From IMG/VR virus record IMGVR_UViG_3300042546_000155: a stretch of 64,000 nt of DNA; one strand, given 5' to 3'. Position 1 is the first letter of the stretch, and each line of letters begins with the position of its first letter. The DNA comes from a virus. The notes under the pieces are model-generated. The model was not told where the DNA came from, made no database searches, and saw only the letters and a list, made by a program, of their open reading frames with translations. Made by a program: the position numbers and the translations under genes. Positions 1,904 to 54,426 of the stretch are shown here, piece by piece.

Positions 1904-3571
1904 TTACAGTCTCGGATCCCATCTGTCATTATAGTATAGGCCTTCTTTATCCACCTTATACCATGAGTCACCAGTAGCATCTTGTTCCACCACTTCATCC
2001 AAACCGTTATCAATGAAACCGAATGGCACATTTTCCACATCTTGTAAGTATGATTGCTCTCTTTGTAGAGCATATCTGATATCATTTGAAACTGTTTCTT
2101 TAAATAATTTCTGTGCAGTCAACCAACCAAAATGAACCAAAGTCATCGCCATGTCATCGTTTGATCCTTCTTCTGCCTTGAAGGTCTTTTTATCGGCAGA
2201 GAATGAAAACAATTCTGTAATCGTGTCTTCATCATTCAGAATGAGTTTATCATTTTCGACAAGAGTTTTAAGGTTGGCACAGCCAATCATCTTAGATTGT
2301 GCTGTCATTTTAAGACCAAATGCTAACTTGTTCTTACCAGCAGCAAAGCCACTTGATGCTTGTGTACCTTGCTTGCCTTTGGTTTGAAACTTTAGCAAGT
2401 TTTCGTAATTCAATTCATAATGAAGAATGTCTGCAACTTGCAAACCAATCGAATTGATTTCAACAAGAACAAATGCCTCGTTATACTTCATGCCAGCAGA
2501 ATATACAACCGCTGGTAAAAGCATAGGGCTGATTTCATTGTTTCTGTATTTAGCTACCTGACGATAAGGTATTTCAGTAACATCGAATATGGAGAATGCT
2601 GAGTAATCTAGTCCCTGTCCCTCGGCAACATCAACGGTCAAAACATATGTGTGTTTAGGAATAGGTTCTTCGAATACTTCCATACATTCCATACGACGAA
2701 TAGGCTCTTTCCAGTGCAACGATGCAAGTTTAGCACCATTGATAAGTGTGTTAGATGAACCTAAGAACTCACAACCAAACTCTTGGTCGAACTGTCTTTG
2801 TGAGGTGTTTCGAATCGTTTCTTGCGCCCATGCTTCGTCTCTACCCGGCACCATGCTCCAGTGAATTTCAATAGGCATATATGTGCTAGTCTTTTCGACG
2901 GCTTTCGTCCACATCTTATAGAACAAGTTCATGCCGTTAGGTGTAGAGACGATAACGACCTTAGAAGTTTTACCAGATGAAATAGTAGGATATGTAGAAT
3001 TAAAGAAGTCCTCAGCAATATTATTCGGTACGAACGCAAACTCGTCTAGAAAGATTAGGTTGAATGAGAAACCACGGACGGAACTACCTGAGGTAGAGTC
3101 GGCTAGAACTCTCGAACCGTTGGCGAGATAAATGGATCCTTTGTTCCACTCTTTGATGCCCTGTTTTAGAAACATTGGCAAGTATTCGAAGGCTAGCTTA
3201 AGTTTGCCAAGTAGTTCTCTAGCAGTCGGTGCACGGTTAGCAAGAATAGCGACAACAAAGTTCTCGTTAAACAAGACTTGGTGAAGGATATACGCTACCG
3301 ATGTAGTAGACTTACCGACCTGACGAGGTAGTTTACAGATAGAGAAACGATTGTCGTGGAATGTTTGCAGCATTCTTTCCTGGAAGTCCCACATTTCGAA
3401 TGGGATCAAACCACGGTCAACGTTAATGATCTTGATATACTTGCGAGCAAAATAAACAGGATCTTCGGCACACTTTAGATACTCATCTAGTTCTTTTTGA
3501 GTAAAAGAATGACGATACTGCTCATTAGGCAGATTGGGATTATTCTGGTAGCTGTAAGGTGTCCTTGCCAT
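1904..3571 (-). CDS. gp17: Terminase large subunit
   Basis: Walker A region KLPRQVGKST, Walker B LIFLDEFAF, coupling motif IVSTPNG, nuclease VDVAEG and DDMAM. No intein visible. Confidence 0.97.
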   Translation of the reverse strand: MARTPYSYQNNPNLPNEQYRHSFTQKELDEYLKCAEDPVYFARKYIKIINVDRGLIPFEMWDFQERMLQTFHDNRFSICKLPRQVGKSTTSVAYILHQVLFNENFVVAILANRAPTARELLGKLKLAFEYLPMFLKQGIKEWNKGSIYLANGSRVLADSTSGSSVRGFSFNLIFLDEFAFVPNNIAEDFFNSTYPTISSGKTSKVVIVSTPNGMNLFYKMWTKAVEKTSTYMPIEIHWSMVPGRDEAWAQETIRNTSQRQFDQEFGCEFLGSSNTLINGAKLASLHWKEPIRRMECMEVFEEPIPKHTYVLTVDVAEGQGLDYSAFSIFDVTEIPYRQVAKYRNNEISPMLLPAVVYSAGMKYNEAFVLVEINSIGLQVADILHYELNYENLLKFQTKGKQGTQASSGFAAGKNKLAFGLKMTAQSKMIGCANLKTLVENDKLILNDEDTITELFSFSADKKTFKAEEGSNDDMAMTLVHFGWLTAQKLFKETVSNDIRYALQREQSYLQDVENVPFGFIDNGLDEVVEQDATGDSWYKVDKEGLYYNDRWDPRL

Positions 3572-53679: not shown

Positions 53680-53832
53680 AAGCGGGCCCGTTCTGTTTCG
53701 AGGTGGAGCCCATACCCAAAGGATTACGCTGCTAGAGCGAAAGCCTCATATGCATTGTTGTCGTTTGCATTTACGATTTGCTTTCGATCTCCTTACGACC
53801 TTACTGAATCCTGTCGAACCTGAATCCGGCCC
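53680..53832 (-). ncRNA. ssrA: Two-piece tmRNA, coding piece (5' acceptor strand, D-loop, tag reading frame)
   Basis: Starts GGGCCGG-AUUCAGGUUCGAC at 53832. After UAAAU, resume codon GCA (53768) reads ANDNNAYEAFALAA-UAA (stop 53724-53726). 3' GGGCUC...AACAGAAC-GGGCCC element. 3' end approximate. Confidence 0.93.
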
Positions 53833-53833
53833 A

Positions 53834-54268
53834 TCATAAAGAAACATGAGGATTGGTTTTCTTCATTACAGATTTCAATCTGCCTCTCCACCATCCTACA
53901 GGATGTTCATTCAAAGAAAACTGACCTTCAGCGTAGCCATCATTGAACCAATATCTTTGAGTTCTAATCTTACGACCATCAGTTCCCGTAGGATACTTTC
54001 TCTCTTTCTTTGAATGGTTTGCCCATCTAAGAGTGTTCGTAAGTTCTGCTCCTTTTTTGGCGCCTTCATTGATTGCGATAAAAGAACATTCATCGGAAGT
54101 TAGTAATCCCAACAAACCTTTCCAAGCAATCAAATCTTGCCAGTGTCCATGTTCCTCATATAGTTTCTTATGCGCTTCGGCATGTTCCTCTATAGTGAGT
54201 TCAACGATATTTTCTGGTTCATCATTCCCACCCATATGTTTAGGAATGATATGGTGCTTATGTTTCAT
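53834..54268 (-). CDS. HNH homing endonuclease-like protein inside the tmRNA intervening segment
   Basis: HKHHIIPKHMGG.D...N.V.LT.EEH..AH (HNH); C-terminal WFNDG...GW.RGR motif of phage HEG DNA-binding modules; AGGAG SD. Confidence 0.88.
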   Translation of the reverse strand: MKHKHHIIPKHMGGNDEPENIVELTIEEHAEAHKKLYEEHGHWQDLIAWKGLLGLLTSDECSFIAINEGAKKGAELTNTLRWANHSKKERKYPTGTDGRKIRTQRYWFNDGYAEGQFSLNEHPVGWWRGRLKSVMKKTNPHVSL

Positions 54269-54274
54269 AATAAT

Positions 54275-54308
54275 CTCCTGTCGATATTACTATTTATAAA
54301 TCGACAAG
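54275..54308 (-). promoter_or_regulatory. Late promoter TATAAATA in the loop of a hairpin covering the HNH RBS
   Basis: CTTGTCGAT(54308-54300)-TTATAAATAGTAAT-ATCGACAGG(54285-54277); the 3' arm overlaps SD AGGAG (54279-54275). Confidence 0.85.
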
Positions 54309-54324
54309 TTTTCACATTTCCTTA

Positions 54325-54392
54325 TGGTGGACCGGGTGGGAACTGCCCCCACGTCCAAGAAGCCTATATTCCGTCTCTCAACGATCTAAGCA
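54325..54392 (-). ncRNA. ssrA: Two-piece tmRNA, acceptor piece (T-arm, 3' acceptor strand, CCA)
   Basis: GGAC-GUGGG-GGCAGUU-CCCAC-CCGGUCC-A-CCA ends at 54325. CCGGUCC pairs with GGGCCGG (G3-U70, discriminator A). UGCUUAGAUC pairs with GAUCGAAAGCA of the coding piece. 5' end approximate. Confidence 0.93.
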
Positions 54393-54395
54393 TAT

Positions 54396-54426
54396 TATTT
54401 ATAACATACGGTGAGTTTTTTGTCAA
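54396..54426 (-). promoter_or_regulatory. tmRNA promoter: sigma70 TTGACA-N17-TATAAA overlapping T4 late TATAAATA
   Basis: -35 at 54426-54421, 17-nt spacer, TATAAATA at 54403-54396. Confidence 0.88.

Follow-up and report, generated by a model that had tools for sequence, protein, structure and literature searches.

An HNH gene inside a phage tmRNA gene is preceded by a late promoter box in the loop of a hairpin predicted to pair its Shine-Dalgarno sequence

We have analysed a window of 64,000 nucleotides (the whole stretch presented here, numbered from its first letter) from the complete 174.5-kb record of a T4-like virus with a GC content of 41%. In this window, an HNH homing-endonuclease gene lies within a permuted tmRNA gene, and its Shine-Dalgarno (SD) sequence is predicted to be base-paired in a hairpin whose loop holds a T4-type late promoter box. 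The device is a known T4 mechanism in a new setting, that of an HNH gene inside a phage tmRNA gene. We consider that a T4-type switch, which allows translation of the HNH gene from one transcript and not from another, is likely to be the best explanation of this arrangement. The core of this I-TevI-type reading is supported by the geometry of the locus, by thermodynamics, by a control on T4 itself and by recurrence of the layout with different stems. It extends the T4 paradigm, in which a selfish endonuclease is silent on the host transcript and expressed from its own late start, from self-splicing introns to the spacer of a permuted tmRNA. It also brings that paradigm to environmental T4-like phages far from the coliphages.

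The layout of the locus is given in Table 1. Rfam assigned the locus to tmRNA_permuted (RF04321) with 62.5 bits, against a gathering score of 47, and to alpha_tmRNA (RF01849) with 51.4 bits. In the Rfam match, the ORF is a long insertion within the intervening segment, between the CCA end at 54325 and the tmRNA 5' end at 53832, and one base separates the HNH TGA from the tmRNA 5' G. The permuted tmRNA was the only Rfam match, and no self-splicing intron was found around the ORF. ARAGORN called no tmRNA in the window, although Rfam shows a complete permuted tmRNA at 53681-54386, because the intervening segment of 492 nt defeats the finder. For annotation, the lesson is that tmRNA finders overlook such genes, and that an RNA gene can house a late promoter.

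Table 1. Features of the permuted tmRNA locus and its HNH gene, in positions of the window.
Feature	Position	Strand	Description	Basis
tmRNA-unit promoter	54396..54426	-	TTGACA 54426-54421, 17-nt spacer ending TGT, TATAAATA 54403-54396	Sequence read and motif match
tmRNA acceptor piece	54325..54386	-	T-arm, 3' acceptor strand, discriminator A, CCA ending 54325	Rfam
Linker		-	16 nt, between CCA and hairpin	Sequence read
Hairpin 5' arm	54308-54300	-	CTTGTCGAT (also given as CUUGUCGAU)	Sequence read, fold
Hairpin loop	54299-54286	-	14 nt	Sequence read
Late box in hairpin loop	54298-54291	-	TATAAATA; 22 nt before HNH start codon	Motif match
Hairpin 3' arm	54285-54277	-	ATCGACAGG (also given as AUCGACAGG)	Sequence read, fold
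SD	54279-54275	-	AGGAG, 6 nt before ATG	Sequence read
HNH homing-endonuclease gene	53834..54268	-	144 codons; ATG 54268, TGA 53836-53834	phrog_655
tmRNA coding piece	53681..53832	-	5' acceptor strand GGGCCGG, TTCGACAGG box, tag ANDNNAYEAFALAA, stop 53724	Rfam and sequence read

The ORF matched phrog_655, annotated 'homing endonuclease', with E = 7e-13. Its match to the Pfam HNH family PF01844 was weak (18 bits, E = 0.003; under the gathering cut-off of 21.4), and the best sequence match in the PDB, the HNH domain of a group II intron maturase, was weak as well (E = 0.0045). The HNH motif lies within residues 1-40, and His-His, Asn and His are visible in the first 35 residues. Judged by this beta-beta-alpha-metal motif, the ORF is a member of the HNH endonuclease superfamily. 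We found 186 HNH relatives in viral contigs, nearly all of which begin with MKHKHH. The GenBank phage collection yielded distant cyanophage HNH matches only, and no relative sharing the locus.

The stem of the hairpin comprises nine pairs including one U-G pair (T54307-G54278), and the AGG of the SD lies inside the 3' arm. RNAfold returned this hairpin as both the minimum free energy (MFE) and the centroid structure, with -12.2 kcal/mol and z = -3.11, and 1 of 200 shuffled sequences folded as well. A preceding sequence-only reading had described a 9-bp stem with one G-U pair, an AGG masked by the 3' arm and a TATAAATA in the loop, and had suggested the fold as a check; its description proved exact to the base. 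Only transcripts that start upstream would include the 5' arm. In the long RNA (start 54390), the AGG is predicted to be paired with a probability above 0.98, opening of the SD costs 4.4 kcal/mol and the probability that all five SD bases are unpaired is 0.0007. In the short RNA (start 54283-54286), the corresponding values are 0.25-0.65 kcal/mol and 0.35-0.67. When the whole ribosome-binding site (RBS, -14..+3) is considered, the predicted opening cost is 11.7 kcal/mol for the long RNA and 4.6 kcal/mol for the short one. By these predictions, the SD and the RBS are base-paired in upstream-started transcripts.

As a positive control, the I-TevI region of T4 (NC_000866) was run through the same script as the window. 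The control gave RBS opening costs of 14.3 kcal/mol for the long RNA and 4.6 kcal/mol for the short RNA. The distance from the box to the ATG is 23 nt for I-TevI and 22 nt in the window, and the leader is 18 nt and 17 nt, respectively. In the I-TevIII region of T4, TATAAATA lies in the loop of a two-tier hairpin, and the outer helix pairs AAGAGG, the SD. The geometry, the RBS costs, the T4 control and the relatives described below all agree with the proposal that this is an RBS-masking hairpin of I-TevI type, which a late RNA started within the loop could not form. On the other hand, it counts against the switch reading that the stem masks only three of the five SD bases and that its stability, about -12 kcal/mol, falls short of that of the class b stems in two relatives (-19 to -23 kcal/mol). 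The MFE structure of the long RNA adds a longer-range pairing, between UAAGGAAAUGUG right after the CCA (54310-54324) and HNH codons 8-12 (54232-54246). The AGGAA/UUCCU part of this pairing is also predicted in the relative L009, where AAGGAA is the SD.

Late transcription was considered at the level of the whole genome. The phage encodes a homologue of the late sigma factor gp55 (phrog_234, 1.6e-53). To define the late motif of the phage, we counted words de novo in upstream regions. The most enriched words were TAAATA, CTAAATA and ATAAATA, which give the motif (C/A)TAAATA. Genome-wide, TAAATA occurs 72 times in the forward (coding-strand) and 21 times in the reverse orientation, and 33 of the forward copies lie no more than 80 nt upstream of an ORF. 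The genes behind (C/A)TAAATA boxes include those for the tail sheath, tail tube, prohead protease, scaffold, tail fibre and baseplate wedge. When plus-strand positions were scored with a matrix built from the remaining sites, the loop box came 13th of 174,481. The exact TATAAATA was dropped as the late promoter of this phage in favour of (C/A)TAAATA; it has 12 copies in the 174 kb genome (11 forward, 1 reverse), and the window holds four copies against 5.1 expected, which is not an enrichment, all four of them on the coding strand. That the exact TATAAATA is rare here, while the usual box of the phage is CTAAATA, counts against the switch reading. CTAAATA is the late box of phage Aeh1, the T4 late box occupies -13 to -6, and its first T is poorly conserved in relatives (PMC1524935). 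When the -13..-6 rule is applied to the loop box, the predicted late start is A54285, the first base of the 3' arm. Judged by its motif, the box immediately preceding the ORF is a late box of gp55 type, and the phage possesses the late machinery.

The tmRNA promoter of the window is composite, TTGACA-N17(TGn)-TATAAA at 54426-54398, and combines a sigma70-like extended -10 with a T4-type late box; the same arrangement is present in L009. A strict consensus promoter scan did not call it, because its -10 hexamer, TATAAA, lacks the final T, and this counts against the switch reading. A terminator scan found no intrinsic terminator between 55200 and 53400, that is, none from the upstream genes to the ORF. 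The possibility that the hairpin itself is an intrinsic terminator was ranked low, considering that no T-run follows it and that the scan found none. In loci where the HNH gene and the tmRNA are divergent, the tmRNA promoter is on the opposite strand, and its -35 lies inside the loop of the HNH-proximal inverted repeat; the upstream region of L025 was also examined. Outside the window, two further TATAAATA boxes (G000:C1:14736-14800 and 138211-138275) are each followed by a similar sequence of about 50 nt (CATGCTGG..TCC...AGAGTAGGTGAGG), which may be a repeated structured RNA element.

We propose that the switch would work as follows. Transcripts that start upstream, either at the tmRNA promoter (about 54390) or by read-through from co-oriented genes, would contain both arms of the hairpin. 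In these long transcripts, the hairpin would pair the SD and leave the HNH ORF untranslated, and the RNA would be free for processing into the two tmRNA pieces. In the loop, TATAAATA would be recognised by the late machinery with gp55, which would start transcription at about A54285. The resulting late RNA would lack the 5' arm, have a 17-nt leader with a free AGGAG and be translated. Firing of the box, the position of its start and a difference in translation between the two RNAs are inferred here. A plausible rationale for such a device, in analogy to the td intron (PMC2988022), is that it keeps the pre-tmRNA free of ribosomes. The sequence-only reading had cast the device as a timing switch, with an early long RNA and a late short RNA. 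The part concerning the two RNAs stands, in that the long one is predicted to be masked and the short one to be open. The part concerning time fares less well, however, since the upstream tmRNA promoter also contains TATAAATA and long transcripts are thus probably made late too. Accordingly, the device would select which transcript is translated, more than when.

Relatives were gathered by protein similarity and by pattern scans, and the context of each locus was typed with Rfam. The pattern scans, for CACCA and a MKHKHH start, returned mostly chance CACCA matches and two new embedded lineages, L121 and L123/L126. An HNH gene inside the tmRNA intervening segment was found in eight distinct lineages, and in six of the eight the late box lies in the loop of an SD-pairing hairpin. 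The stem GTCGAT/ATCGAC is common to the window, L121 and L015-17. L019 and L021 have the stem ATCTATCCTATT/AATAGGATAGAT together with an outer helix over the SD, and L123/L126 have the stem GTCGATTCTA/TAGGATCGAC together with an outer helix, UCUCUAA/UUGGAGA, over the SD. The loops range from 9 to 23 nt and are divergent in sequence, with TAAATA as the sole conserved part; the boxes they hold include CTAAATA in L121, TATAAATA in the window and two boxes in L015. Considering that three unrelated stems show the same architecture, the logic appears to have been selected repeatedly where a homing endonuclease sits in a structured-RNA gene.

In the other embedded lineages that bear the hairpin, the long and short RNAs differ in predicted RBS cost by 5-13 kcal/mol, except in L021, where the difference is almost nil (0.4 kcal/mol) and counts against the switch reading. 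The stems also covary. Among 17 stems anchored on the GTCGA/TCGAC core, the first inner pair is T-A in ten and A-T in seven, and other positions show compensatory changes among A-T, C-G and T-A. G-U pairs, which are workable only in the sense strand, occur in 7 of the 17. L019 and L021 are the loci with the strongest hairpins (-19 to -23 kcal/mol). In both, the HNH ORF extends 14-26 nt into the tmRNA coding piece, over the 5' acceptor strand and the TCGAC box, so that translation and tmRNA folding would compete for the same bases. A further relative, L061 (2870-3000), has half of a tmRNA T-arm (GGACGGGGGTTCGATTC) just upstream of its HNH gene and an intact permuted tmRNA downstream. The half T-arm looks like a partial target duplication left by insertion into the T-loop.

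The embedded L009-13 and L014 manage without the device, and this counts against the switch reading. They are the closest protein relatives of the window HNH (59-66% identity) and are embedded likewise, and they have neither the hairpin nor the late box. Their ATG stands 10-11 nt past the CCA, the prediction for the pre-tmRNA is an open RBS (3.8-4.3 kcal/mol), and their tmRNA genes look intact. In the HNH tree, they fall within a well-supported clade of seven (100/98), the other five members of which have the device. The simplest reading of this tree is that the device was ancestral in the clade and was lost twice, and it would therefore be dispensable. In L043 and L018, where the HNH gene is situated just upstream of an uninterrupted tmRNA, the device is likewise present before that gene, which suggests that it follows the endonuclease gene rather more than the embedding. 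It was found in eight of ten co-oriented tmRNA-linked loci and in none of 18 divergent or free loci. We do not claim a strict association of embedding and device, because the loci form two clades in the HNH tree and represent few independent events. The view of the sequence-only reading that the locus is a co-adapted cassette is thus borne out in part. On the one hand, six of the eight embedded lineages have the device; on the other hand, the two closest embedded relatives lack it, and L043 and L018 have it outside a tmRNA.

Two side observations concern relatives with other arrangements before the ATG. In L009-L013 and L014 (at about position 3001), the intervening segment resembles a minimal mRNA, in which a leader of 10-11 nt follows the CCA and the ORF then runs to a stop codon one base short of the tmRNA 5' end. 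Once excised, this spacer RNA could serve as the messenger. In addition, among 50 distinct members with a box no more than 60 nt from the start codon, 28 have TAAATA at a distance of exactly 5 nt from the ATG, and no SD lies between the two; this spacing is seen in L020, L022-L026, L028, L030-L035, L037, L040-L042, L049-L051, L053-L056, L065, L068-L073, L075, L080 and L081. Under the -13..-6 rule, the late mRNA would start at the A of the AUG and be leaderless, which would provide a second means of confining translation to the gene's own late transcript.

The inverted repeat could also be read mainly as a protein site at the DNA level, a copy of the target placed over the late promoter, by which the HNH protein would repress its own transcription. 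The 3' arm contains TCGACAGGA (54284-54276), which agrees in every base with the tmRNA 5' box at 53817-53809 (minus strand; GGTTCGACAGG type). In L015, L020, L033, L041 and L049, too, 9-11 nt of the 3' arm are identical to the tmRNA box of the same locus (p <= 0.004 against shuffles), which makes six loci with the window. Autorepression of I-TevI through an operator that resembles its homing site and covers the late promoter is documented (PMC2988022). In the divergent relatives, moreover, the repeat flanks the -35 of the tmRNA promoter and is probably not transcribed from either known promoter. The 3' arm may accordingly mimic the target of the endonuclease or serve as its operator, and such a role could coexist with the RNA hairpin. 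However, the spacing between the arms ranges from 7 to 24 nt, which is ill-suited to a dimeric operator, the G-U pairs seen in 7 of the 17 stems would turn into A-C mismatches on the opposite strand, and no significant match to their own tmRNA box was found for the class b stems (L019, L021). We consider it quite unlikely that the repeat is mainly such a site.

Two further explanations leave the hairpin without a role in the translation of the HNH gene. In one, it would serve the processing or the stability of the pre-tmRNA, for instance as a 3' trailer structure directing how the acceptor piece matures, and the TATAAATA in its loop would be incidental. The position of the hairpin, 17-48 nt past the CCA end and within the segment to be removed, is what this explanation would expect. 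However, the embedded L009-13 and L014 lack the hairpin and their tmRNA genes are apparently intact, the device also precedes the HNH genes outside a tmRNA in L043 and L018, TAAATA alone is conserved in the otherwise divergent loops, and each of the three stem classes pairs the SD. A processing element therefore seems highly improbable. In the other explanation, the structure would be due to chance or be a relic with no present function, and translation of the HNH gene would be independent of the transcript. Short AT-rich hairpins and TAAATA words are indeed common in a phage of 41% GC, and TAAATA was present in 116 of 2780 random 60-nt windows of these loci (about 4%). The z score of the fold (-3.1), the recurrence in six embedded lineages with three different stems and covariation, and the match of the geometry to I-TevI make chance very unlikely. 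We therefore retain the transcript-selective switch as the preferred reading.

A joint reading would bring these observations together, and we offer it tentatively, as rather unlikely in its entirety. The HNH family would be specialised on the two-piece tmRNA genes of phages, where the segment excised by RNases would be the equivalent of an intron without splicing. It would use two interchangeable routes of late-only translation, the hairpin with a promoter in its loop, and a box 5 nt before the ATG that yields a leaderless mRNA. The 3' arm would have a second role: as a copy of the tmRNA 5' box that the enzyme recognises, it would act as a decoy or an operator. For the question of whether ribosome traffic harms tmRNA maturation, the hairpin-less L009 and L014 provide a natural comparison; Gibb and Edgell reportedly answered this question for the td intron.

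In our literature search, no paper was found on an HNH gene or a promoter within the intervening segment of a tmRNA. Two-piece (permuted) tmRNA genes are known in marine and aquatic myophages, namely Melnitz and the pelagimyophages (PMC9004378). The tmRNA of these phages is like the present one in being of alphaproteobacterial type, in a T4-like phage, with an early-type promoter, which here is a putative one. An ORF or a promoter within the intervening segment is mentioned neither there nor in the paper on the tmRNA database (PMC11915505).

The combination of a late promoter and an RBS hairpin is established for I-TevI, I-TevII, I-TevIII, segB and mobE of Aeh1, and the T4 late genes e, soc, 49, 25 and 26 are silenced by RBS hairpins on early and middle polycistronic RNAs (PMC2988022). 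The latter genes resemble the present case in that translation takes place only from the late-promoter transcript, but they are ordinary phage genes and not mobile endonucleases in an RNA gene. I-TevIII, in the nrdB intron of T4, and Aeh1 mobE are closer in the type of enzyme. Both (Gibb and Edgell 2007, 2009, cited in PMC2988022) are HNH-family proteins with an RBS hairpin and a late promoter, and as here they are found in T4-like phages. The two-tier hairpin of I-TevIII is matched in layout by L019, L021 and L123. They differ from our case in protein subfamily, which here is that of phrog_655 with the MKHKHH start, and mobE is free-standing in the nrd operon and not within an RNA gene.

The closest parallel is I-TevI in the td intron, regulated by a late promoter and an RBS hairpin (Gott et al. 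1988 and Gibb and Edgell 2010, as reviewed in PMC2988022). I-TevI is a GIY-YIG enzyme, whereas the present one is HNH, and it lies in a self-splicing intron, whereas the segment here belongs to a permuted tmRNA and is removed by cellular RNases. In both cases, however, the endonuclease ORF lies inside a removable segment of a structured RNA, and its 3' end abuts the functional RNA. In both, the late box stands 22-23 nt before the ATG; a late start inside the hairpin and a leader of 17 nt, against 18 nt for I-TevI, are predicted here. In both, finally, the SD is paired in the long RNA, here by prediction, and the predicted RBS costs are nearly equal.
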